Below, piece by piece: positions 11,201 through 28,557 of a stretch of 64,000 nucleotides of DNA. The DNA lies in the NCBI GenBank assembly GCA_045046875.1, contig JASFYY010000022.1, forward strand, positions 1-64,000, in the 5' to 3' direction. Both the position numbers and the translations under genes were made by a program. The stretch comes from Verrucomicrobiota bacterium. GTDB lineage: Bacteria > Verrucomicrobiota > Verrucomicrobiia > Verrucomicrobiales > DEV007. The notes under the pieces are model-generated. The model searched no databases and was not told the origin of the DNA. It saw nothing but the letters and a program-made list of their open reading frames with translations. The number at the start of each line of letters is the position of its first letter. Within the stretch, counting starts at the first letter, position 1.

Positions 11201-12214
11201 ATGGAACGCAAGGGAATCCTCGCCGCTGGCAGCTACATCGTCGATCATGTGAAAATGATCGACGCCTGGCCGCCTCAGGATGCCCTGGCGACTATTGTAA
11301 GCAAAGAAAGCAGCAACGGCGGAGGCCCTTACAATCTCAGCAAAGACATCGCGCGACTTTTCCCCGACGGTCCACCTTTTCCTTTGGCTGCCGCCGGATT
11401 AGTTGGCGACGATGCTGACGGGCGTTGGATTCTCGCCGACTGCCAAGCGCACCAGATCGATACCGCCCAACTGAAAACCACTGACCAGGCCCCCACCTCC
11501 TACACCGATGTGATGACGGTGGAAGCTGACGGACGGCGAACTTTTTTTCATCAACGCGGAGCCAATGCTCTTTTCAGTGAACAGGATCTGGATCTCGACC
11601 GAGTTGATGCCCGCATCTTCTATCTCGGTTACCTCTTACTGCTCGACACACTCGATCAGCTAACTGACAAAGGAACCCGAGCATCCTCCCTGCTTGCCAA
11701 CGCGCGCAGCCGCGGGTTGCTCACCGTGGTCGATCTGGTCAGTGCGGAGGGAGGCAACTTCACCGACATCGTCAGTCCCTCACTGCCTCACATCGACGTT
11801 CTGCTCACCAATGAATTTGAAGCCTCCCGCCTGTCCGGGATAGATCTGCACCAGGAATTTTCTGCAAAAAATGCACTCAAAGCCGCCCGCACCATTCTCG
11901 ACATGGGCGTGCAACAGCGAGTGGTCATCCACGCCCCACTCGGTGCCGTCGCGATTGATCGCAAACAAGGAGCCTTCACCGCAGGCTCCGTCGCCATGCC
12001 CGATAAAGTCATCCGAGGAGCCGTTGGTGCCGGTGACGCCTTTGCCGCGGGCATCGTTTATGGCTTGCACGAAAATTTGAGCATCGAGGAATCCCTCACC
12101 ACTGCCAGCTGCATTGCCGCCAGTTGTTTGTTGCATCCCACACCCTCCGGCGGCATCCGTCCACTTGACGACTGCCTCGGATTAGGTGAACAATGGGGAT
12201 TCCGCGATTTCTAA
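11201..12214 (+). CDS. PfkB/ribokinase family carbohydrate kinase
   Basis: GGGPYN, GLVGDDADG, NEFEA, GAGDAFAAG. Confidence 0.9.
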   Translation: MERKGILAAGSYIVDHVKMIDAWPPQDALATIVSKESSNGGGPYNLSKDIARLFPDGPPFPLAAAGLVGDDADGRWILADCQAHQIDTAQLKTTDQAPTSYTDVMTVEADGRRTFFHQRGANALFSEQDLDLDRVDARIFYLGYLLLLDTLDQLTDKGTRASSLLANARSRGLLTVVDLVSAEGGNFTDIVSPSLPHIDVLLTNEFEASRLSGIDLHQEFSAKNALKAARTILDMGVQQRVVIHAPLGAVAIDRKQGAFTAGSVAMPDKVIRGAVGAGDAFAAGIVYGLHENLSIEESLTTASCIAASCLLHPTPSGGIRPLDDCLGLGEQWGFRDF

Positions 12215-15502: not shown

Positions 15503-16084
15503 ATGCGCGATCAGCACTCAAACCCTATCCAAGATGCTTTAGTGCAACTCGGAACCCAAGCCGAAACACTCAAGCTTCCTTACTTACTCATTGGTGGTAA
15601 TGCCATAATTAGTTACGGCATCATCCGCCTCACCCGCGACATTGATTTCCTCATTCCCGAAACCGCCGTCAAAGAATGGCGTACTTTTCTCGAAAATTCC
15701 GGCTACCAGTGCTTCCACGCCACCCCCGCCTTCTGCCAATTCCATTCACAAGGTGAGCCACATGCACTTAACCTGGCCCCAGTCGACTTGATGATCGTTG
15801 ATACATCAACCTGGCAAAAATTGTCAGCAAAAGCAGAACGTAAAGCCATTACTAGAACCTACAGCCCCCATCTCCCAGCCGCCACCCACTTAATCGCTAT
15901 GAAACTTAAGGCTTGGCAAAATCCTCACCGCCGAGAAGACGCCCAAGACTGGAATGATATTGTGAAACTGATTCAAAAACTTGAAATAGACATCAAAAAG
16001 CCTGATGTTGCTGAGCTAATAGTCTCCTACGGAGGAAACGAAGCGCTGATTCAACTGGAAAACGCCCTATCCTCCTCCCCCTAA
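15503..16084 (+). CDS. Nucleotidyltransferase-fold protein (AbiEii/DUF6036-like)
   Basis: YLLIGGNA...RLTRDIDFL, VDL, LIAMKL, R...D..DI motifs. Confidence 0.75.
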   Translation: MRDQHSNPIQDALVQLGTQAETLKLPYLLIGGNAIISYGIIRLTRDIDFLIPETAVKEWRTFLENSGYQCFHATPAFCQFHSQGEPHALNLAPVDLMIVDTSTWQKLSAKAERKAITRTYSPHLPAATHLIAMKLKAWQNPHRREDAQDWNDIVKLIQKLEIDIKKPDVAELIVSYGGNEALIQLENALSSSP

Positions 16085-16107
16085 GCCCCGCAAAGCCATG
16101 TCGAGTC

Positions 16108-16314
16108 ATGCCTAACACGATCAACATAGACAAAGGAGACTTGGAATTAAATTTCCCAGACCCCGAAATGCCTTTGAAGGAGCCTCCATGCTCTCAATTG
16201 AGTTGGGAGCAATGGATGATGGAGACTGCTGATCGAACACGTTATTTTCTACTTCATCACGACTCCCGCGAACAACGCAAACGCGACCCCAACGAAGAAC
16301 GTTTTGTGCTTTAG
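16108..16314 (+). CDS. Small hypothetical protein, possible partner of the nucleotidyltransferase
   Basis: 68-aa ORF 24 nt downstream of the NTase, same strand, ends ERFVL. Confidence 0.5.
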   Translation: MPNTINIDKGDLELNFPDPEMPLKEPPCSQLSWEQWMMETADRTRYFLLHHDSREQRKRDPNEERFVL

Positions 16315-16391
16315 GAGGAATAAGTTAGGAGATAGAATACTTTTCAGCCAGGTGAAAGAAACCGCAGCTCCTCAACGTATAGCTAGGTAAG

Positions 16392-17240
16392 ATGAAACTT
16401 TTCACCAGACGCGCCGCCCTCAGAACCGGCTTACTCGGAGTCGCTGGAACCGGCTCGCTCGCCTACGGCAACTTGATCGAACGCCACCAACTGACCGTTG
16501 AACAAGTCAATTGCCCGCTTAAAGATGAACACTCCGACCTCGCTGGCCTGCGCATCGCCATGGTAGCCGATTTTCATTTTGACGAACTACAGGAAGGCGA
16601 GTTGGTCGACCGCTGTGTCAAACTGATCAATGCCCAGAAACCCGACCTGGTTGTATTGTGTGGTGACTATGTCAGTCATGACCGCGAACCGATCGAGCGC
16701 CTGTCACAGCATCTTGCCCAACTCAGCGCCCCGCCCGGCGTATTTGCCGTGTTAGGAAATCACGACCACTGGTCCGGCGCCGGTCACATCACTCGCCAAC
16801 TCAGCTCCTCCGGAATCGAAGTGCTGCGCAATCAAGCACCCACCCTGACTTACCGCCACAGCCCCTTCCAACTCGCCGGCCTCGGCAGTGCCTGGGCCGG
16901 TGCCGCCGACTACAAACACGCCCTGCCCGCCTCGACAAAACCCCCGTCCAGCAGTCCGCCCGTCATCCTCGCGATTCACGAACCCGATTTCTTCGACCGC
17001 ATCTGCAAAGACCCCCGCCTCGTCCTGCAGCTCTCCGGTCACACCCACGGCGGACAAGTCTGCGCCCCCTTTCTCGGAGCCATCCGCCTACCCTCATGGG
17101 GCAAAAACTACGTATCCGGTCTCTACCAGCGCCACGATAGCCACATCTACGTCACCCGGGGCGTCGGCACCCTCTTCCCCCACGTCCGCTTCTGCTGCCC
17201 CCCGGAGATTTCATTGATCACCCTGAGCGCAAACGTTTGA
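16392..17240 (+). CDS. Calcineurin-like metallophosphoesterase (YkuE-like), Tat-like signal
   Basis: TRRAALR; ADFH, GDY, GNHDH, HEPD, SGHTHGGQ, RGVG motifs. Confidence 0.9.
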   Translation: MKLFTRRAALRTGLLGVAGTGSLAYGNLIERHQLTVEQVNCPLKDEHSDLAGLRIAMVADFHFDELQEGELVDRCVKLINAQKPDLVVLCGDYVSHDREPIERLSQHLAQLSAPPGVFAVLGNHDHWSGAGHITRQLSSSGIEVLRNQAPTLTYRHSPFQLAGLGSAWAGAADYKHALPASTKPPSSSPPVILAIHEPDFFDRICKDPRLVLQLSGHTHGGQVCAPFLGAIRLPSWGKNYVSGLYQRHDSHIYVTRGVGTLFPHVRFCCPPEISLITLSANV

Positions 17241-17389
17241 GGCTCACTAAAGTCCAAACACCACTCCACAGGAGAGCGGGTTTTCCTACCCGCCGTAACA
17301 CCAATTTCCCTTTTGGCTCTTTTCCCCCTCACCATTCCGGATCTCAAATTTCAAATTGCCATCCTCCCCCATAACTCCCTTGCTCAAGG

Positions 17390-17406
17390 TGTAACACTGT
17401 GTCACA
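17390..17406. promoter_or_regulatory. Probable antitoxin operator palindrome
   Basis: TGTAACAC-T-GTGTCACA (7/8 dyad) 8 nt upstream of the antitoxin ATG, between TTGCTC and CACATT boxes. Confidence 0.5.
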
Positions 17407-17414
17407 TTAACCTC

Positions 17415-17648
17415 ATGCACAGTATTTCCATTCGAGAGCTCCATCAATCTACTGGAAAAATAGTCCGCTACGCTGCAACCCAATCGACCATCGTGACTGA
17501 TCGAGGGCGTCCCATAGCCATCATTAAAGCTATCACGGAGGCCGACCTGCCGGGCAAAGCATTGCCGCCTTCTCATTGGCAATCACAATCAAGGCCACGA
17601 ATCAAAACTGATTCGACCGCTACGGTTTCCACTGACCGAGACCGCTAA
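17415..17648 (+). CDS. Phd/YefM family antitoxin
   Basis: MHSISIRELHQSTGKIV...IVTDRGRPIAII; directly upstream of a PIN gene. Confidence 0.8.
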   Translation: MHSISIRELHQSTGKIVRYAATQSTIVTDRGRPIAIIKAITEADLPGKALPPSHWQSQSRPRIKTDSTATVSTDRDR

Positions 17649-17662
17649 GAGCTAGCTTGCTG

Positions 17663-18097
17663 ATGATCTATCTCGATACCTGTTATATTCTAAAGTGCTA
17701 CCTCACCGAGCACGGATCAGAGGAAGTCCGCCAGCTCACCCAGTCGGCCAACGGCTTGGCTTCCTGCGAACTCGCACGAGTAGAGTTCTCCGCCGCCGTT
17801 CACCGTCACCGGCGAGAAGGAAAACTCTCCGAAATCGACGCAAAAAAAGTATTCACCCATTTTCGAGCCGACGAAAAGTCCGGACTCTGGAAATGGTATC
17901 CTCTCACTCGAACTTTATTGGACGATGTGTTCAATGATTATCAAAACCTGGACTCCTCAGTATTTGTTCGAAGCAATGACGCCATCCACCTGGCTTGCGC
18001 CCGCCAGCAGGGTTTTAGGGAAATTCACAGCAACGATCGCCACCTGTTAAAATCAGCAGCAGCATTTTCCCTCCAAGGAATCAATGTCATCCCTTAA
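17663..18097 (+). CDS. vapC: VapC/PIN-domain toxin
   Basis: MIYLDTC..LK.YL.EHGS, RVEF, RSNDAIHLACA, SNDRHL. Confidence 0.85.
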   Translation: MIYLDTCYILKCYLTEHGSEEVRQLTQSANGLASCELARVEFSAAVHRHRREGKLSEIDAKKVFTHFRADEKSGLWKWYPLTRTLLDDVFNDYQNLDSSVFVRSNDAIHLACARQQGFREIHSNDRHLLKSAAAFSLQGINVIP

Positions 18098-18245
18098 GCC
18101 TCAGGCCGCCGTAACACAAATTTCCATATTTGTTCTTTTCTCTCACAATCTCAATTTTTAAACCCCCTCCCCCTGCTGGTGTCCCACCCTATGAGGTATA
18201 AATGAAGCCTTGATACCAATTCAGATTTCGAACACTATCCGCCGG

Positions 18246-18734
18246 ATGCCATTTTACGCCCATACTAAAGAAAATACAGATGGTTCTCCTGCTGCACAAA
18301 GCGAGTGGGAACTGTTGTTTACTCCTTTTGGTGACGGCGATAAAGAATGCCAAGGCAAGAATGGCGATTCTTGCCAGAAGTGCCATGACATGGATCCTCA
18401 GCATGGGCATCTGAATAAAGTCGCTTATTGGTCAGGGAAATTTGCTGCAGAGATGTTCCCTGAAGAAGCAGATCGGGAATCCGCTCGTCAATGGGGATAC
18501 CTCGCAGGGCTATGGCATGATTTGGGCAAATTCTCAGAAAAATTTCAAAACTACCTGACCAAGGTATCAGACATTCATTGTGATGAAATCCTAGAGCGCA
18601 TTGATCACACAAGTACCGGGGCAAAGCTATCCGCATCAAAATCCTTTCCCTTAGGACACTGCATCAGCACCGCCATTGCCCACAAAGCCTCTCTGGACCC
18701 AAAATGCCGATTTCAAAGGCCTGCCGTAGGTTAA
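18246..18734 (+). pseudogene. cas3: Truncated Cas3 HD-nuclease N-terminus (type I-C-like); similarity stops at ~18681
   Basis: FYAHT...HLNKVA...LAGLWHDLGKFSEKFQNYL...DHTSTGA...IA, then unrelated sequence where GHH and the helicase are expected. Confidence 0.8.
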
Positions 18735-18796
18735 TTATTTCCCTAAGCAGTAGTCTATTAGGCTATCCAATCAGCAATTATGATTCTCCTTCAATC

Positions 18797-18825
18797 TTGT
18801 TTTTACCCACATTTCCCCATAAGAT
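18797..18825 (+). promoter_or_regulatory. Sigma70-like promoter for the upstream sgRNA-like RNA
   Basis: TTGTTT-N17-TAAGAT; predicted TSS A18832 at the 5' end of the first hairpin. Confidence 0.55.
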
Positions 18826-18831
18826 ATCAAC

Positions 18832-18920
18832 ACTCCAGTCACGTTACTGGAATTTTTTTGGGTTCCGCTATCACCCAAACATCGTTGAGATGAAGCGGTA
18901 TTGTAAGCAAACGATAAATT
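18832..18920 (+). ncRNA. Putative natural single-guide RNA for Cas12b (fused tracr-like scaffold + repeat-like end + guide); 3' end approximate
   Basis: Hairpin TCCAGT/ACTGGA; stem TTTGGGT/ACCCAAA with 9-nt loop TCCGCTATC; hairpin CATC/GATG; A-AGCGG pairing with loop CCGCT; same layout as the tracrRNA+repeat with compensatory changes. Confidence 0.6.
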
Positions 18921-19050
18921 TCATTTAACTACACCAGTTATTCATTTCATTGATTACAATAGATTAAATTAAACCTTTACTCTCCCAAAACCTCTAATAT
19001 TGTGACATTCTCACCATTTTCTATCAAAGTATCAAACCCCACCACACATC

Positions 19051-22000
19051 ATGTCACTCAATAGGATTTTTCAGGGGCGCATCTCATCTTTCGCGCTACA
19101 AAATGATCAAGGAGAATTCGACGAGCTCAGCAATTTTGCAGCAGAAACTTCCCCGCTTTTCCAACATCATCGAGTTTTTCAGGATGCCGTGAACTACTAT
19201 TTGCTGGCCATAGTTGCCCTTGCTGACCGTAATAAAGACACTCCCCTGGCACAACTCGCTTCGCGAATGGAAGAGGTATGGTCACCCTTTGTAAAACGAA
19301 ATCACCATTTTTCAGGGCTATTAGCATCGCTGGCGCCTTGGTTGGAACTCGATTCCAAAGCCACGTTGCCGGATGCCTTTAACAAAATTCTCGCCGACAA
19401 CCCGGCGGATAAGGAATTGCTGAATCTAGCAGCTGCATCCCTGCTCCTCGACCTGGGAGGCGACTCGGCCATCCAGCAGGGAGGGAGAACTTATTTCCCG
19501 CTACTTTGCGACCCGAAATCAAGTGCCAACTTCCCGCGCGGTTCTGTTAATCGCTTGAAATCGAAAGGCAAAGCCATTCTCGCATCCATCTTGTGGGCTC
19601 ACGACATCGATAACAAATCCCCGGAACTTGGCAAAAAATTACACTATGATTATTTTGCCAATCCCACTACCGACGGGAAAAAAATCGAAGGAAAATTTGC
19701 CCGAAGAAAACTAACCGAAGCACTGGCACATGAGCATGCAACCCTGGTTCTTCCTCCGCAGCTAAAAATCGAATTGGAACTCAGTATCCAGCAATTACCT
19801 GAAGACTACTCCTTCCCTAATTACACCGGCGGTAGTGTTAATAAAGACGCTCTTAAACGCCGCTTTTTTCTTTATCTTCTCACTGCCCACGTTTCACCAG
19901 ATCCTAAACTTTACCAACGCCTCCGTGACACCTTCCAACAGCCAACGACGCTCGTCAGTGAATACATCCCCAAAGAAGCGGAATTACCCTTCCTCAAACT
20001 CGACGACGATCCGATCAAACTGGCGCGATGTAAACGAGGCTATGTCTTCCCAGCTTTTACCGCACTTCCTCTATGGACTGATGTGAAGGGCCGTCGCGCC
20101 ACGTGGAAAGAGTTCGACATTGCCGCTTTTAAAGAAGCACTTAAAACCATCAACCAATTCAAGGCAAAAACAGCCGAGCGAAAAGCGCGTATGGCAGTCC
20201 TCGCGACTTCCATCGATTACATCAAGGGCGCTACAAGCAAGAAACCTAAAATCACTGACGAAGAAACCGATGAAGTTCCAATTCACACCTTCAAAAAAGA
20301 TGCCCGCTACCCACTTTTGACTAAACTACGGACTGATTTAGGCATCACTGACGAGGAAGAAGAATTCCATGAGCGAGGGATTTCGCGGTCCGGCATACGC
20401 GGCTTTAGAGATATCCGAAAGCAGTGGGATGCCCTGTTCAAAGAAGGTCGACCAAATCCAAGCGAAACATTGCTTGTCGACATTGCTCAGCAATATCAAA
20501 AAGATAACTCCCGAAGCATCGGAGATGCCACGCTCTTTCAAAAACTTGCTCAAGCTGAATTCCACATACTTTGGAGAAATCCCTGTGAGAAAGAAAAAAT
20601 TGAGCGTATTCGCAGCAACCACGCAGTGGATGTTTTTTCCGCCTATATCACCTTGGCTGATTTTGAATCCGAGCTCAAACGCTGTGCCGACCCCATCAAG
20701 TTCACGCCTGCCGATCCGATCCACTCGCGCAGATTATTCATGTTTTCAGACATGACGGGTAGTACCAAAGCCAAGATTGATTTGGAGAAAGGTGAAATCG
20801 CATTGTCAATAGTGTGCCAACAACAAGGCACGTGGCTGACACGCAAAGCTAGACTCACATTCTCAGCCCCCCGCCTCAAACGGGACGGACTCATCGCCCG
20901 ATCAAATGCGCCCTGGCTACCTCCTGTTATGGGTGGACTGGAACTGGATTCCCAATACGCCGTCATGGATAAGATTGCCCTGAGTTACATGCCCACAACC
21001 CGCGCCGACGGGGGCATCACCCATTTGTTGAACTTTCCCGTTACCTTCGATGAAAGCGCACTGCTCGAGGCGATCGGCAAAAAAGCTATCTGGGATGGCA
21101 ACTTCAACGGCACAAAGAACACTAAACTCCACCTGCTGTGGCCGAGTATTAGCGAAGCCAAAGGAAAAAAATCTCTTTCTTGGTGGAAAAATTCAACGGT
21201 CATTGCACAGGGCTTTCAAGTCATGGGGGTTGATCTTGGACAACGTGCAGCCGCCGCATGTTCGATTTTGGATATTCGCTGCGACAACCGTTTCCATAAG
21301 AACCAAAAACCATTCACCTTGGTTGGTAGAACAGACGGTCATGACTGGAAAGCAAGTTTGCGCGCGCAATTCACCCTGAAATTACCTGGCGAGGGAATGT
21401 CCATCCTTGGGGAAAACGGCAAATTTTCCAAGGAACCCGGAGGCAACCGCGGTCGAAAATCGACCGAAAGTGAATGGCAAGAGGCTTGTGCCGCTGCGGC
21501 TGTATTCATTGACGAGCCGTCTTCGTGGCTCGGAAAATCATTTAAGCAACTCACCTACCCTGAACAAAACGACAAGCTTGTAAAAATTCTCCGCCGTTCA
21601 AACAGCCGTTACCGCTCGCTTTTTCGGGCGTCCTGGATGTTAGACACCGATCTGGAAACCGCGCTTGAAATAGTGAAATCATTCCCCTCAGCAACTAATC
21701 TGACGGGCTTGGCTGAGAGTAAAAATATAGGTAAATTAAAAATATCTCTGCAAGAGCAATTAGAAAGCCTTTCTACAGGAGTCATCAATTTTATTGAAAT
21801 AATTGCCAATCGAATCCTGCCTCAACGTGATTACATTTGGGAATGGGCTCCGCATTCAAGCAGTTCGTTTGGCGACGACGGTTGGCATGAATTGAAACGC
21901 AAGCCTTCTAAAATTCACCCAAAAATAAATCCACAGAGACAACGTGGGATTTCCATGGCGCGCATCGAACAACTTGATATTTTTCGTCGAACACTGCTCT

Positions 22001-23127
22001 CATTCAATCGCAGCCAACAAGAAAAATTCGGGGTGAAACCAACATCGGGAGCTGCTCGTCGGGAACAACCCACTCCAGAAGTCTGCCCTGAGATATTGGG
22101 GAAAATCAACAATATAAAAACCCAACGAGTTAACCAAACAGCGCACATGATTCTGGCCCAGGCCCTGGGTGTCAAACTCACCAGCAACAAGACCAGCAAG
22201 GCTGAACGTCGAGATCATGACATTCACGGGGAATACGAAGCCATTACTGGTAGAGCGCCCGTTGATTTTATCGTCCTCGAAGACCTCCGTCGTTACACCA
22301 TGTCCAGCGACCGCCCTCCTTTTGAGAACGGACGCTTGATGAAATGGTGTCACAGCGCAATCACTGATAAAGTGAAGGAACTCTGTGAACCTTACGGAAT
22401 CACTGTTCTGGAAACATTTCCCGCCTATACCTCGAAATTCCATTCTGTTCTGCACTGCGCTGGATTCCGAGCCCGTCAAATCACCCGCACGGATGCATGC
22501 AGTTCCTATGCAATGATGCTGGCAGAGAAAGTCAAACTCACGCCCATCGAAACTCTAAAAAACAGCCTCTTCGCAAAACTCCGGGAAGCAGCTAATAAAA
22601 ATATTTTCATGCCAGGACTATGGCTTCCGGAAAATGGTGGTCCTTATTTCATCGGACTAATGAAAACACAAGATGGATACCGCCCTACACCACCCCATCA
22701 CGCAGACTTAAACGCATCAGTGAATATTGCTCTCAACGCTATAGCAGCGCCCGATTCAACTCACCTCTTACGCAAAATACGTGCCGAACACAAAGCAGGA
22801 AAGCCCGTCCTAGTTAAATCGAATAAACGGGAAAAAGCCGCCTTTGGGAATAACCCTGACATCACATTCGCTACTAAACCTGAAGCCGCGTTTATTGCAA
22901 AAAACCGTTTTAATATTTTTGCCGACATGGGCAAGCTAGCAACCTTTGACTCCATCACCATCGAAGGAATAACAGAGCCCCTAGCAACTGCACGAGGCTT
23001 GTTCAAAGCCGTAAAAAACGAGAAATGGGCCGTCTGTGAAGGACTCAATCACAACATCCTGAAAAATGCCGGATTGGCACCAAACAGTTTACATATAGAT
23101 CCCGACGACGATCAAATCCCCATGTGA
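19051..23127 (+). CDS. cas12b: Type V-B CRISPR effector Cas12b (C2c1), 1358 aa, long Opitutaceae-like form
   Basis: MSLNRIFQGR N-terminus and DDDQIPM C-terminus resemble Opitutaceae C2c1 as recalled; RuvC-I GVDLGQR, RuvC-II IVLEDL, RuvC-III HADLNASVNI; next to cas4/1, cas2 and the array. Confidence 0.92.
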   Translation: MSLNRIFQGRISSFALQNDQGEFDELSNFAAETSPLFQHHRVFQDAVNYYLLAIVALADRNKDTPLAQLASRMEEVWSPFVKRNHHFSGLLASLAPWLELDSKATLPDAFNKILADNPADKELLNLAAASLLLDLGGDSAIQQGGRTYFPLLCDPKSSANFPRGSVNRLKSKGKAILASILWAHDIDNKSPELGKKLHYDYFANPTTDGKKIEGKFARRKLTEALAHEHATLVLPPQLKIELELSIQQLPEDYSFPNYTGGSVNKDALKRRFFLYLLTAHVSPDPKLYQRLRDTFQQPTTLVSEYIPKEAELPFLKLDDDPIKLARCKRGYVFPAFTALPLWTDVKGRRATWKEFDIAAFKEALKTINQFKAKTAERKARMAVLATSIDYIKGATSKKPKITDEETDEVPIHTFKKDARYPLLTKLRTDLGITDEEEEFHERGISRSGIRGFRDIRKQWDALFKEGRPNPSETLLVDIAQQYQKDNSRSIGDATLFQKLAQAEFHILWRNPCEKEKIERIRSNHAVDVFSAYITLADFESELKRCADPIKFTPADPIHSRRLFMFSDMTGSTKAKIDLEKGEIALSIVCQQQGTWLTRKARLTFSAPRLKRDGLIARSNAPWLPPVMGGLELDSQYAVMDKIALSYMPTTRADGGITHLLNFPVTFDESALLEAIGKKAIWDGNFNGTKNTKLHLLWPSISEAKGKKSLSWWKNSTVIAQGFQVMGVDLGQRAAAACSILDIRCDNRFHKNQKPFTLVGRTDGHDWKASLRAQFTLKLPGEGMSILGENGKFSKEPGGNRGRKSTESEWQEACAAAAVFIDEPSSWLGKSFKQLTYPEQNDKLVKILRRSNSRYRSLFRASWMLDTDLETALEIVKSFPSATNLTGLAESKNIGKLKISLQEQLESLSTGVINFIEIIANRILPQRDYIWEWAPHSSSSFGDDGWHELKRKPSKIHPKINPQRQRGISMARIEQLDIFRRTLLSFNRSQQEKFGVKPTSGAARREQPTPEVCPEILGKINNIKTQRVNQTAHMILAQALGVKLTSNKTSKAERRDHDIHGEYEAITGRAPVDFIVLEDLRRYTMSSDRPPFENGRLMKWCHSAITDKVKELCEPYGITVLETFPAYTSKFHSVLHCAGFRARQITRTDACSSYAMMLAEKVKLTPIETLKNSLFAKLREAANKNIFMPGLWLPENGGPYFIGLMKTQDGYRPTPPHHADLNASVNIALNAIAAPDSTHLLRKIRAEHKAGKPVLVKSNKREKAAFGNNPDITFATKPEAAFIAKNRFNIFADMGKLATFDSITIEGITEPLATARGLFKAVKNEKWAVCEGLNHNILKNAGLAPNSLHIDPDDDQIPM

Positions 23128-23139
23128 AACACAAACAAC

Positions 23140-24798
23140 ATGACCGAACAACCCCTCATCCCCGTTCGTCGCCTACACAACTACGCCTACTGCCCCCGCC
23201 TTTTTTATTATCAGTGGGTGGAAAACCTCTTTGTTGAAAATGCTGATACCATTGCAGGAAAGTCTGTTCATCGCAACGTCGATAGACCCAGTTCTTGGAA
23301 AGACGACCTCGACCTCTCCGAACGCGCATCCCTACGCTCGCTTCATTTATCCAGTGAAAGCCTTGGCATCGTAGGGGTCATTGATCTGATTGAAGATACC
23401 GACTCTGGTCATGAGTTACTTGACTATAAAAAAGGTGCCTCACGTAAAGACGAGAACGGCTCGCGAATTCCTAAAGAAAATGACGCCCTACAAATAGCAG
23501 CTTATGCCTTATTACTCCGAGAGCACGGCATGGCTCCATCCAAGGCCTCCATTTATTATGCCCAAGAGCGTCGTCGTGTTCCTGTAGAATTGATCAAACA
23601 ACTTTATGAACAATGCCAACAACTCATTAAGGCAGCACAACAAACAGCGGGATCAGGCAAATGTCCTCCACCGCTCCACAACGATCCACGTTGCCTTCAT
23701 TGCTCCGCCTACTGCATTTGCCTGCCCAATGAATCAGCATTTTGGGGAGGAACCCTAGAATCGCCTCTCACGGAAAAAGAACCTCCTCGCCCACCTGGAG
23801 ACGAAGGCGAAATCCTTATTGTGCAAGAACCTCGAGCCTACGTGGGTAAAAAAGCAGGCGAAATCACTGTGAAACTTGAAAAAAAAGTAATTTCCAAACA
23901 TCCCATCGAACAGCTTCAAGCCGTTTACCTTTACGGAGGGATACAGGTCAGCACTCAAGCTCTACATTCCTTGTTAGAGAAAAACATCCCCGTTGCTTAT
24001 TTTTCACCTGCCGGAAGGTTTTTGGGGCTAACTGCTGGACTCCCTACATCAGGGATAGATGCGCGGCTTGGTCAAGCCCGCCTATTTAACTCACTCGAAC
24101 ATCGCCTAGCACTAGCACGAGAAATAATCAGAGCTAAAATAAACAACCAGCGAGTGCTACTCATGCGTAACGGGCAAGCCCCCGACCTTGCGCTCAAACA
24201 ACTCGCGACCTTGCGCGACAAAACGATACACGCTTCCGACCTCGATGAACTACGCGGATTAGAAGGAAATGCTGCCGCTCATTATTTTTGCCATTTTGGG
24301 ACAATGCTAAAAGGCTCCGCCTTTGAGAATTTTGATTTTGAAGGGCGCAATCGTCGGCCACCCCGAGATCCTATCAATTCGCTACTCTCCCAAGGTTACT
24401 CTATCCTCTCCAAAGAACTCACAGGTATGTGCCATGCCGTAGGCCTTGATCCCTTTATCGGCTTTTTCCACCAACCACGCTACGGTCGCCCCGCCCTAGC
24501 TCTGGATCTCATGGAAGAATTCCGTCCTCTCATTGCGGATTCCGTTGTTATTTCTCTACTCAACCGCCGCGAACTTGAGCCTAATGATTTCACTCAAACT
24601 TCACGCGGCACCTTTCTCACAAACGAAGGTCGGCGGCAATTTTGGCGTGCCTGGTTTCGCCGCATGGATACAGAGGTCAAGCACCCCCAATTTGGTTACC
24701 GCATGACTTACCGCCGGATGCTTGACGTGCAAACTCGGCAACTCTGGCGCTACCTCCGTGGAGAGACCGAAACCTACCATGGGTTCACCACCCGCTGA
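23140..24798 (+). CDS. cas1: Cas4-Cas1 fusion
   Basis: Cas4: YCPR, GVIDL..DYKKG, QIAAY, CLHC...C. Cas1: GLEGNAA, RNRRPPRDPINSLLS, GFFH, LDLMEEFR. Confidence 0.96.
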   Translation: MTEQPLIPVRRLHNYAYCPRLFYYQWVENLFVENADTIAGKSVHRNVDRPSSWKDDLDLSERASLRSLHLSSESLGIVGVIDLIEDTDSGHELLDYKKGASRKDENGSRIPKENDALQIAAYALLLREHGMAPSKASIYYAQERRRVPVELIKQLYEQCQQLIKAAQQTAGSGKCPPPLHNDPRCLHCSAYCICLPNESAFWGGTLESPLTEKEPPRPPGDEGEILIVQEPRAYVGKKAGEITVKLEKKVISKHPIEQLQAVYLYGGIQVSTQALHSLLEKNIPVAYFSPAGRFLGLTAGLPTSGIDARLGQARLFNSLEHRLALAREIIRAKINNQRVLLMRNGQAPDLALKQLATLRDKTIHASDLDELRGLEGNAAAHYFCHFGTMLKGSAFENFDFEGRNRRPPRDPINSLLSQGYSILSKELTGMCHAVGLDPFIGFFHQPRYGRPALALDLMEEFRPLIADSVVISLLNRRELEPNDFTQTSRGTFLTNEGRRQFWRAWFRRMDTEVKHPQFGYRMTYRRMLDVQTRQLWRYLRGETETYHGFTTR

Positions 24799-24816: not shown

Positions 24817-25101
24817 ATGGCTAGAACTCGCTACCTCGTTTCTTACGACATCTCTGATCCAAAGCGACTGCGGCACGTCGCCAAAACTTGCGAATCATTT
24901 GGTACGCGTATTCAATATTCCGTTTTTGAATGCCCTTTAGATGACCTACGTCTAGAAAAACTGAAACACGCTTTGCTAACAACTATCAATCACGATGAGG
25001 ACCAGGTTCTATTCATCTCACTAGGCCCAGAGCACTCCCCTTTTCGCATCGTAGCACTTGGACAGCCTTACACCGAGCGCTCTCGAGTCACTATTATTTG
25101 A
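24817..25101 (+). CDS. cas2: CRISPR-associated endoribonuclease Cas2
   Basis: YLVSYDISDPKRL..V.K...FG.RIQYSVFEC. Confidence 0.97.
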   Translation: MARTRYLVSYDISDPKRLRHVAKTCESFGTRIQYSVFECPLDDLRLEKLKHALLTTINHDEDQVLFISLGPEHSPFRIVALGQPYTERSRVTII

Positions 25102-25109
25102 GTTTCCTC

Positions 25110-25138
25110 TTGCCAAAAAGTTAACAAACCTTTATTTT
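25110..25138 (+). promoter_or_regulatory. Sigma70-like promoter for the tracrRNA
   Basis: TTGCCA-N17-TATTTT immediately upstream of the predicted tracrRNA. Confidence 0.5.
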
Positions 25139-25140
25139 GC

Positions 25141-25205
25141 AGTTAGCTACGTGCTACTTTTCGCGAACCACCGCCTTCGGTTTCGCCAAGCTTGTTCTTT
25201 AACAT
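25141..25205 (+). ncRNA. Predicted tracrRNA (split anti-repeat); ends approximate
   Basis: CCGCCT (25171-25176) complementary to repeat 3' AGGCGG; CAAGCT-tgt-TCTTTAA (25187-25202) complementary to repeat TTAAAGAAGCTTG; enclosing stem GCGAACC/GGTTTCGC; 5' hairpin; lies between cas2 and the array as in V-B loci. Confidence 0.75.
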
Positions 25206-25408: not shown

Positions 25409-27320
25409 GGTTCATCCGCTAGGATTTAAAGAAGCTTGAGGCGGTAGGGCGTCCAGGGCCTCTGAGGTATCAGGGGCGGGTTCATCCGCTAGGATTTAAA
25501 GAAGCTTGAGGCGGCCCTTCATAGGTGGTGGTGAACGTGGAGCATCGTGGGTTCATCCGCTAGGATTTAAAGAAGCTTGAGGCGGCTGGCGACCGTGGGC
25601 ACGGACTCGTTGAGGTGGGGTTCATCCGCTAGGATTTAAAGAAGCTTGAGGCGGTTTCAAGGTGAATTGAGCCCTCCTGGTGGGCACTGGTTCATCCGCT
25701 AGGATTTAAAGAAGCTTGAGGCGGATAGCCACCCAGGATGGACGAGGAGGCAATAGGGTAGGGTTCATCCGCTAGGATTTAAAGAAGCTTGAGGCGGAGA
25801 AAATGAGTTGCCGGAAAGCGTGCAGATTGCGGGGTTCATCCGCTAGGATTTAAAGAAGCTTGAGGCGGCGTATACATATCGCAATCAGATTCCCGTAGTT
25901 CGGGTTCATCCGCTAGGATTTAAAGAAGCTTGAGGCGGTGGAGGCTGCGTCGGCTACGGTGACTCGGTTTTTGGTTCATCCGCTAGGATTTAAAGAAGCT
26001 TGAGGCGGAGTAGGAGGCTTCTCAGCAAGAGCCGTTGCCGCAGGGTTCATCCGCTAGGATTTAAAGAAGCTTGAGGCGGTCCTAATCTCACGCCCGAGGA
26101 AATTTTTAAAAGCGGTTCATCCGCTAGGATTTAAAGAAGCTTGAGGCGGCCGAAACTTATCGGTCGATTATATCTGACAATGTGGTTCATCCGCTAGGAT
26201 TTAAAGAAGCTTGAGGCGGAATCAAACTATCCCTTAATTGGTGCTCGTCCATAGGTTCATCCGCTAGGATTTAAAGAAGCTTGAGGCGGTTTACTCATAA
26301 GCATTTGTCCGCGAGCGTGTAAAAGGTTCATCCGCTAGGATTTAAAGAAGCTTGAGGCGGTCAGCTTCAGGTGGATATACTGGAGAACCCGTGGTGGTTC
26401 ATCCGCTAGGATTTAAAGAAGCTTGAGGCGGTCATCCATGGCTTTTAATACAGCGTCTCTTATCCGGTTCATCCGCTAGGATTTAAAGAAGCTTGAGGCG
26501 GTCATCGGAGACATTTACAAAGCTGCCGAGATTGTGGTTCATCCGCTAGGATTTAAAGAAGCTTGAGGCGGATGGATGAAGAAATAGGCAAATGCGATTA
26601 CTTGGGGTTCATCCGCTAGGATTTAAAGAAGCTTGAGGCGGCTTCGTCAGGGTGAACGTATGCAGATTGTGGTCTGGGTTCATCCGCTAGGATTTAAAGA
26701 AGCTTGAGGCGGCGAGAAACCTACAGGGGGCAACGCTCGAATTTGAGGTTCATCCGCTAGGATTTAAAGAAGCTTGAGGCGGTCAACTTCACACTCTCCT
26801 TTTTTCGCGGGTGCTTGGTTCATCCGCTAGGATTTAAAGAAGCTTGAGGCGGTAAGGAAATTGAAATGTTTGTTCTCATTTAATAAAGGTTCATCCGCTA
26901 GGATTTAAAGAAGCTTGAGGCGGGCCGTCGGCAGCAATGTAGGGCTCATTCGTAGCTGGTTCATCCGCTAGGATTTAAAGAAGCTTGAGGCGGGCTAGAT
27001 TGCGGGAACTTTTCGCTAATCAAAAAAGGTTCATCCGCTAGGATTTAAAGAAGCTTGAGGCGGAGATGAAAGAACTAATGGAGGGGCTGAAATGAGTGGT
27101 TCATCCGCTAGGATTTAAAGAAGCTTGAGGCGGAAGGCACAATTTTCATGATGGAACTAAAAGCACAAGGTTCATCCGCTAGGATTTAAAGAAGCTTGAG
27201 GCGGCTTAAATTATCGGTTCCTGTGTTGATCTCAGTAAGGTTCATCCGCTAGGATTTAAAGAAGCTTGAGGCGGCCGTTCCAAACGATGCAGATGCGTCT
27301 GGCTGCTCGGTTCATCCTCT
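25409..27320 (+). CRISPR. Type V-B CRISPR array: 27 identical 36-nt repeats GGTTCATCCGCTAGGATTTAAAGAAGCTTGAGGCGG (25409-27274), 27 spacers of 33-37 nt, truncated terminal repeat at 27309
   Basis: Counted directly; orientation from the leader side, the degenerate distal repeat (GGTTCATCCTCT) and the tracr anti-repeat. Confidence 0.98.
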
Positions 27321-27809: not shown

Positions 27810-27842
27810 ATCGCCCCCTTCACGGGGGGCGCGGATTGAAAC
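27810..27842 (+). CRISPR. Solo type I-C-like CRISPR repeat
   Basis: ATCGCCCCCTTCACGGGGGGCGCGGATTGAAAC: GC hairpin plus GGATTGAAAC 3' end typical of I-C repeats; single copy. Confidence 0.75.
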
Positions 27843-27919
27843 CTCGTCTAAATCCTTACCCGCTCGCTCTAGTAAAACCAAATAGCTTTACATATCATAT
27901 TAAGCACCATAAAGTTAAT

Positions 27920-28135
27920 ATGATGGACATTTCTACTTTATCCCCCAAATATCAAACCGTCATACCAAAGAAGATTCGTAAAGAGATGAATCTCCAACCG
28001 GGACAACAACTTCAATTCACTGTCAAAGACGGCCGCATTGAAATCCAACCCATCCTCTCTGGCCAAGAGCTCATCGGATACCTCAAAGAAACCAAACCAC
28101 TTGAATTTAATCGCGATGCTGACCGCAAACTTTAG
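27920..28135 (+). CDS. AbrB/MazE-type antitoxin
   Basis: TLSPKYQTVIPKKIRKEMNLQPGQQLQF...GRIEIQP. Confidence 0.85.
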   Translation: MMDISTLSPKYQTVIPKKIRKEMNLQPGQQLQFTVKDGRIEIQPILSGQELIGYLKETKPLEFNRDADRKL

Positions 28136-28173
28136 GCCCCTGTAAAATAGCCTTTGCCAACCCACCTAAGTCC

Positions 28174-28557
28174 ATGCTCCATATCCTTGATTCTTCAGCG
28201 TGGTTGGAATGCCTCGACAACGGCCCCAACACGTGTCACTTCGAACCCATTTTACTCCAATTGCCCTCCTTGCTCGTCCCCAGCATCATACTTACAGAAG
28301 TGCGCAAAGTTGTGCTATCACAACGAACACAGGAACAAGCAGAAAGTGTCACCCGCAGCATACGTTCGGCTCAAATCATCCCCATCGACGCCCAAATTGC
28401 CAGCTCTGCCGCCGACCTATTCATCCAATACGGACTCCCACTCGCCGACTCCATCATCTACGCGGTCACCCTCTCTCACAATGCCACCCTTTGGACACAG
28501 GATGCTGATTTCAAAAACCTGCCTCACGTTAACTATTTCCCAAAACGTAAAACCTAA
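28174..28557 (+). CDS. vapC: VapC/PIN-domain toxin
   Basis: ILDSSAWLE, ILTEV, LPLADSIIYA, LWTQDADF. Confidence 0.88.
   Translation: MLHILDSSAWLECLDNGPNTCHFEPILLQLPSLLVPSIILTEVRKVVLSQRTQEQAESVTRSIRSAQIIPIDAQIASSAADLFIQYGLPLADSIIYAVTLSHNATLWTQDADFKNLPHVNYFPKRKT

Follow-up and report, generated by a model that had tools for sequence, protein, structure and literature searches.

Positions 18832-18918 of the window (the whole 64,000-nt stretch of verrucomicrobial DNA analysed here) would encode a separate natural single-guide RNA for the adjoining Cas12b, and it is likely that this dedicated RNA makes the active nuclease repress its own operon, as tracr-L or CreR do. The anatomy of the element, its recurrence in other loci, the co-variation of guide and target, the flank common to the targets and the intact RuvC motifs are seen in the sequence; what we infer is that the RNA is transcribed and loads into nuclease-competent Cas12b. 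A single strand would fold as a tracrRNA joined to a processed crRNA, which would make both the tracrRNA and processing dispensable; 8-11 PAM-proximal bases of the guide would pair with positions 18961-18950 beside an ATC PAM, binding the site through a match too short for cutting, and the bound Cas12b would block transcription of cas12b-cas4/1-cas2, taken here to form an operon. The resulting negative feedback would relax once crRNAs occupy Cas12b or Cas12b is inhibited.

A complete type V-B system is encoded on the forward strand of the window. The cas12b gene (19051..23127; NF033949, 610 bits) encodes a protein of 1358 aa with three intact RuvC motifs, and it is followed by a cas4-cas1 fusion (23140..24798; NF049935, 622 bits), cas2 (24817..25101; TIGR01573), a tracrRNA promoter, TTGCCA-17-TATTTT (25110..25138), the canonical tracrRNA (25141..25205, the 3' end being approximate) and a CRISPR array of 27 repeats of 36 nt and 26 spacers (25409..27274). 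The tracrRNA consists of a hairpin, a stem-loop carrying CCGCC (25171-25175) and an anti-repeat from 25187, and the repeats end in GAGGCGG, which is the layout that an earlier note on this DNA, made from the sequence alone, had proposed for tracrRNA and repeat. The window Cas12b has no relative above 40% identity among 308 proteins; the named loci with the closest Cas12b belong to Verrucomicrobiota, and no guide element was found upstream of cas12b in L024 and L025, the closest at 39-40%, or in the same-genus locus L550 (for L549, just 250 nt upstream of cas12b were available to inspection).

Toxin-antitoxin genes lie on both sides of the window's CRISPR locus (15503-18097 and 27836-28557: AbiEii-like, Phd-like with PIN, and AbrB-like with VapC), and a truncated cas3 HD fragment at 18210-18760 runs into a stretch which is 79% like the 3' end of vapC (28489-28544); by eye, cas3-like starts seem to precede cas12b in L542, L549 and L550. 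In L113 (951-2068 region), L024, L025, L065 and L171, cas12b is preceded by arrays and a tracrRNA, on one strand or the other, an unusual layout, and inverted or truncated remnants of a further cas12b adjoin the main gene in L545/L553 and at L141:340-520. Canonical tracrRNAs in three loci (L069:8990, L086:11432, L147:7706) have a downstream TG-C-GGCGG, which could fold onto the tracrRNA's own loop as a possible long isoform or switch, and L057:1817 has, just upstream of cas12b, a second anti-repeat-like stretch with high complementarity to the repeat.

The window element itself, at 18834-18898 on the forward strand, is a compact fusion of the 5' part of a tracrRNA with the 3' end of a repeat. 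It begins with a hairpin (18834..18851; -6.2 kcal/mol) which is the counterpart of tracrRNA stem 1, and an A followed by seven U (U7, 18853-18859) makes this hairpin also terminator-like. A 7-bp stem (18857..18879; arms 18857-18863/18873-18879) encloses the 9-nt loop T-CCGCT-ATC, in which CCGCT (18865-18869) is the anti-repeat; the hairpin CATC-GTTGA-GATG (18880..18892), with 4 bp and a 5-nt loop, stands for the long repeat:anti-repeat duplex; and a linker A with the repeat-like end AGCGG (18893..18898, AGCGG at 18894-18898) leads into the guide (18899..18918, with a provisional 3' end). A pseudoknot between CCGCT and AGCGG is predicted from their complementarity, and this layout is common to 16 elements. 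The earlier note had placed promoter, hairpin, U7 tract, stem-loop, 4-bp hairpin and AGCGG exactly where they are found in the sequence, and the three helices it drew are those of the minimum-energy fold (RNAfold).

Taken alone, the window element is weak and unremarkable. Its fold stability is ordinary (z -1.67, with 13 of 200 shuffles equally stable), Rfam at the gathering score gives 0 matches in the 64-kb window (the best E within 18700-19060 is 4.5), and there is no second copy elsewhere in its genome. One DNA sequencing run leaves 18814-19427 uncovered. The candidate promoter, TTGTTT-17-TAAGAT (18797..18825, forward strand, with hexamers at 18797-18802 and 18820-18825), is the best local one and is weak: it has 7 of 12 consensus bases, falls below the threshold of the promoter scanner, and scores 3.6 in a promoter model derived from 59 tracr promoters, for which the background has a median of 1.6 and a 75th percentile of 4.1. 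The scanner also scores the 5' hairpin with U7 as terminator-like, and a tract of this type is absent from the other 15 of the 16 elements compared. The element is missed by an HMM of tracr sequences, and a covariance model trained on seven other compact elements returned it with the exact bounds 18834-18898 at a low score (8.1 bits, E 3.8, rank 11 of 20); the same model also misses the window's real tracrRNA. That tracrRNA diverges as the element does, in its ACGT loop and pyrimidine linker, and likewise the tracrRNA of a same-genus genome.

Such fold and covariance-model figures would suit chance hairpins in AT-rich intergenic DNA, unrelated to the family of the relatives, as would the loosest structural descriptor, which gives 10-13 matches per shuffle compared to 22 rows observed. 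The strict descriptor (CA...TG closing), however, has a single match in the window, which is this element at the expected place, and 4 matches in 2.25 Mb, and the guide has an 8-nt match at the exact register beside an ATC flank, a length which none of the 182 swapped guide-locus pairs described below attains. Chance is in our view an extremely improbable explanation; the window element stands above it because the rule relating guide, target and flank is held in common with the relatives.

These relatives were sought in cas12b loci drawn from genomes and metagenomes, with two scans of which the best 80 of 180 and the best 80 of 241 were kept. The N-terminus was present in 149 of 191 cas12b loci, and 119 remained after redundancy removal; the element search combined an HMM of 59 tracr 5' parts, structural descriptors and inspection. 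A fused guide lies upstream of cas12b in at least 14 of the 119 non-redundant loci, the window included (13 of 100 among loci with at least 700 nt upstream), and this count is a lower bound because the HMM misses divergent copies such as that of the window. In the 14 loci the second tracr-like unit precedes cas12b by 150-680 nt and ends in a hairpin and a repeat-like end, and the RuvC motifs of Cas12b are unbroken in all 14. The structural conservation in homologous loci on which the earlier note had staked its natural single-guide reading is present, and the reading gains support from 13 further cas12b-linked elements of the first set, three found later and two in phages.

CCGCC:GGCGG is altered with pairing kept in 4 of 16 elements, a co-variation which for the window and L358 is partly selected because their descriptor demands the pseudoknot, and the distance from the -10 end of the best promoter to the loop motif is 32-34 nt in 13 of 16 elements and in 44 of 59 tracrRNAs. 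On a FastTree tree of 101 rows the 14 elements need 11 changes, compared to a shuffled mean of 13.3, and this patchy distribution implies repeated gain, loss or transfer. Among the loci, L043/L142 and L058/L060 are kin, and L358 is misaligned by MAFFT. Among the 17 compact matches of a loose descriptor (1, 1 and 5 in shuffles), seven rows are array palindromes (L139, L157), three are chance-like and seven are elements, so that counts from this descriptor overstate the signal. A candidate in L051/L120 was rejected for having no local guide match, and a hairpin in L369 was rejected by eye for having no repeat end.

The guides of the 14 loci are all different, and each matches 6-11 nt within 300 nt. 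When, regardless of PAM, the longest perfect match to the 5' end of each guide was taken from the 330 nt that lead towards cas12b, the cognate matches summed to 117, compared to a maximum of 75 across 73,364 derangements; the 182 swapped guide-locus pairs give matches of 3-7 nt, and none reaches 8. An ATC flank accompanies 12 of 14 cognate sites and 5 of 182 swapped best matches; the non-ATC flanks are TTC once and ATT once, and a flank of the form A/T-T-C/T is found at 14 of 14 cognate sites and in 17 of 182 swapped pairs. When the start of the guide is displaced by -4 to +8 nt in 12 elements, the match sum falls from 102 to 30-51, the signal being already lost at a shift of 1 nt, in a control that used an A/T-T-N filter picked after the data had been seen. 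Three of five later candidates fit the same rule, with matches of 6 nt (L540), 9 nt (L542, where the target sits between TTGACA and TATAAA) and 9 and 8 nt (L551), every flank being CATC. Under the strict rule L554 fails, as its ATC-flanked site, noticed by eye and not reported by the script, is mismatched at position 3; L555, a broken cas12b locus with a 7-nt match flanked by GGG, fails too.

In the window, the first 8 nt of the guide are identical to the minus strand at 18961-18950, and 11 of 12 nt agree overall. This predicted target (18950..18961, minus strand), 90-101 nt before the ATG, lies in the cas12b promoter or leader beside a 5'-ATC (18962..18964, minus strand; AATC with 18965), and it is the best of the ATC-flanked matches of the guide genome-wide. 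Candidate -35 hexamers inside the target, at 18954 and 18950, score 6.6 and 3.4 in the promoter model; a further candidate promoter at 18901 scores 7.1, and its use would place the target in the leader.

If the RNA loaded Cas12b mainly as a decoy or buffer, or had its true target elsewhere, other sites would come into question: a longer match, 13 of 13 nt, is found 7.6 kb away at 11293-11305 (plus strand) in a pfkB-family kinase gene, two other genomic sites, on other contigs, match in 11 of 12 nt with TTT flanks, and the guide of the phage record L420, discussed below, is self-complementary and has no local target. The 11293 match, possibly a chance one, has however a GAC flank, which occurs at 0 of 14 cognate sites, and 13 of 13 relatives have their match locally, before the operon. 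We consider a decoy or a distant target very unlikely, and take the site before cas12b as the one that the guide would address.

The cognate flanks suggest ATC as the candidate PAM of the window Cas12b, an assignment which draws on the same target sites; the PAM published for Cas12b is TTN and not ATC in the available text of PMC12204704, and no convincing match for protospacers that would give the PAM was found in phages, plasmids, the organism's own genome, the collected loci, 320 stretches of viral DNA or 134 genomes of the family. A match of 6-11 nt would plausibly let Cas12b bind without cutting, since, in the parts of the papers available, ChCas12b is reported to require at least 20 nt for cutting (PMC12204704) and the seed of BthCas12b is 5 nt (PMC6546406). 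Binding of a short match without cutting has been shown, again in the available text, for Cas9 with tracr-L (10.1101/2020.05.21.102756) and for Cas12a with a 10-nt phage guide (10.1101/2024.10.29.618823).

Guide-loaded Cas12b would, we infer, repress the operon. The targets occupy varied positions between the -35 region and the start codon, and RNA-guided activation is reported, in sources seen in part, for Cas12f homologues, both of which would suit a Cas12b that, instead of repressing, acts on transcription by activating or positioning it, or on the site by nicking it. An activator should nevertheless hold a fixed distance and strand, and the sites lie on both strands (11 opposite to the guide and 3 the same, in 14 loci) and their distances vary, which is what steric blocking would give; nor is any sigma-factor gene seen between element and cas12b. 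Activation, positioning or nicking is given hardly any credence here, and repression is the role that we retain.

Between target and cas12b, 10 of 14 loci carry an orphan ORF of ~85-110 aa (the L043 copy is truncated), and none of the ten has a Pfam match. A model of the L116 protein (L116:9719-9991; pLDDT 83) resembles RelE/ParE/HigB toxins, with Z 10.9 and an rmsd of 2.6 over 80 aligned positions of RelE 9g12_B, and an Atlas search concurs; the ORFs would share the RelE/ParE fold, which was assessed on this one protein. Similar ORFs are also present in L540, L542 and L554. Six of the 10 ORFs, or 7 of 13 with these three added, end in AA, which we take to resemble the ssrA degron. No antitoxin gene is seen between guide and ORF, and a profile of these proteins, which is weak and built from themselves, matched no upstream ORF in element-free loci. 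The toxin-fold gene of a CRISPR-repressed toxin module is found in these relatives and not in the window, which has no ORF between target and cas12b. The window, L069, L358, L365 and L551 keep guide and target without the toxin-like ORF, and the circuit there would be plain autoregulation.

The absent ORF, the gene fragments directly upstream, the weak promoter, the terminator-like hairpin with U7 and the low covariance-model score could mean that the family is functional and the window copy a silent or decaying relic, whose transcripts mostly end at U7 or are never made and whose match is inherited from an ancestor bearing the toxin-like gene. Every helix is nevertheless preserved, with both strands changed; no fault is seen in seed, register or flank; the tracrRNAs of the window and of the same-genus genome have diverged likewise; and the four other loci without the small ORF still keep guide and target. 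A relic is, in our judgement, unlikely, and self-repression by the window RNA is the reading that we prefer.

The elements appear to have arisen by duplication of the tracr-leader-first repeat, followed by shrinkage. In the compact forms the closing part measures 13-16 nt, in six elements it measures 57-83 nt, and L365 has upstream of cas12b a near-complete tracr-linker-repeat copy of 228 nt, compared to 242 nt for the native tracr-leader-repeat; this duplicate has a 7-nt target flanked by CATC, and it looks like an intermediate stage in the origin of the guide. Two complete phage records of IMG/VR, both bounded by direct terminal repeats and lacking a cas12b match, also carry complete compact guides on the minus strand, L328 (2971-3037; HMM E 5e-8) and L420 (2501-2569; HMM E 6e-8). 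These RNAs are candidates for anti-CRISPRs or for borrowed regulators. Within the L328 genome the guide has a single flanked match of 7 nt, located at the promoter of the guide itself beside AATC, which is no more than suggestive because part of the match is a -35 motif; no relatives of the L328 phage gene were found. Loose-pattern viral scans, which covered the flanks of 80 out of 120 stretches in one case and of 80 out of 111 in the other, gave mostly chance matches, and the loose pattern matched 6 of 401 genomes, none of which scored with the tracr HMM.

The chances are about even that these elements form a minimal sgRNA family, originating by duplication and shrinkage, through which Cas12b represses its own operon and, mostly, an orphan RelE/ParE-fold toxin gene whose product often has a degron-like AA, as a module for RNA-antitoxin addiction or with an anti-anti-CRISPR role within a type V system that depends on a tracrRNA, and whose phage copies hijack or sequester host Cas12b.

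The nearest known systems, compared here through the available parts of the papers cited, differ from this arrangement in several respects. The tracr-L RNA of type II-A Cas9 (10.1101/2020.05.21.102756) is likewise a natural single guide that turns an active nuclease into a repressor through a short match of 11 bp beside a PAM in the cas promoter, with a patchy distribution and guide-target co-variation; like it, the window guide has, in its predicted structure, a tracr scaffold and a repeat mimic in one strand, and a short target match in the cas promoter region which co-varies across loci. An identity with tracr-L proper was rejected, as the guide locus is separate from the tracrRNA and the nuclease is Cas12b: tracr-L is the tracrRNA itself in a long isoform, whereas the window guide would be a separate gene ~6 kb from the tracrRNA, of type V, with a 3' guide, a 5' PAM, a pseudoknot and a ~65-nt scaffold. 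The CreR and crRNA-like RNAs of types I and V-A (10.1101/2023.03.10.532045, 10.1101/2023.03.03.530964) also have a stand-alone guide gene upstream of the effector and a partial cas-promoter match, but they are degenerate repeats or mini-arrays of tracrRNA-free systems, processed by Cas proteins, whereas the window guide has ~8 nt of repeat left and a tracr scaffold of its own, for which reason a CreR/CreA crRNA-like identity was rejected.

In CreTA/CrePA (10.1101/2024.01.05.574328, PMC12737573), as in 10 of 14 loci here, a guide is directed against the beginning of an orphan gene of toxin fold in a cas locus, but those systems combine Cascade with an RNA toxin or a KilA-N protein, whereas the relatives combine Cas12b with a putative toxin of RelE/ParE fold directly before cas12b. 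The phage Cracr/Racr RNAs (10.1101/2024.10.29.618823) are likewise phage-borne mimics of host regulatory guides, but L328 and L420 carry full single-guide scaffolds, and Cas12b and V-B are absent from the accessible text of that study. The engineered ChCas12b sgRNA (PMC12204704) also has two repeat:anti-repeat duplexes and pairs the last five repeat bases with the tracr loop, and duplex 1 is ordered for 5 bp only in the structure, as far as the available text describes it, which fits the natural 4-bp hairpin; it is, however, man-made and longer, belongs to another Cas12b lineage with a TTN PAM, and carries a full-length guide for cutting. A full-text literature search, with supplements, journal versions, subscription papers and patents outside its scope, found no type V-B regulatory guide; in their available portions, 10.1101/2023.03.10.532045 and 10.1101/2023.03.03.530964 do not mention Cas12b, and neither the tracr-L preprint nor the CreTA/CrePA text mentions Cas12.

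If the proposal is true, RNA-guided self-repression extends to type V-B by another device, namely a natural sgRNA gene dedicated to this role. The range of linkers, from a 4-bp hairpin through 57-83 nt to a near-complete tracr-leader-repeat copy, would trace a route from a two-RNA system to a single guide, and the relatives would connect the natural sgRNA to a toxin fold and to phage mimics. The evolved 65-70-nt Cas12b scaffolds and the predicted ATC PAM, for an apparently uncharacterised clade, are both directly testable.
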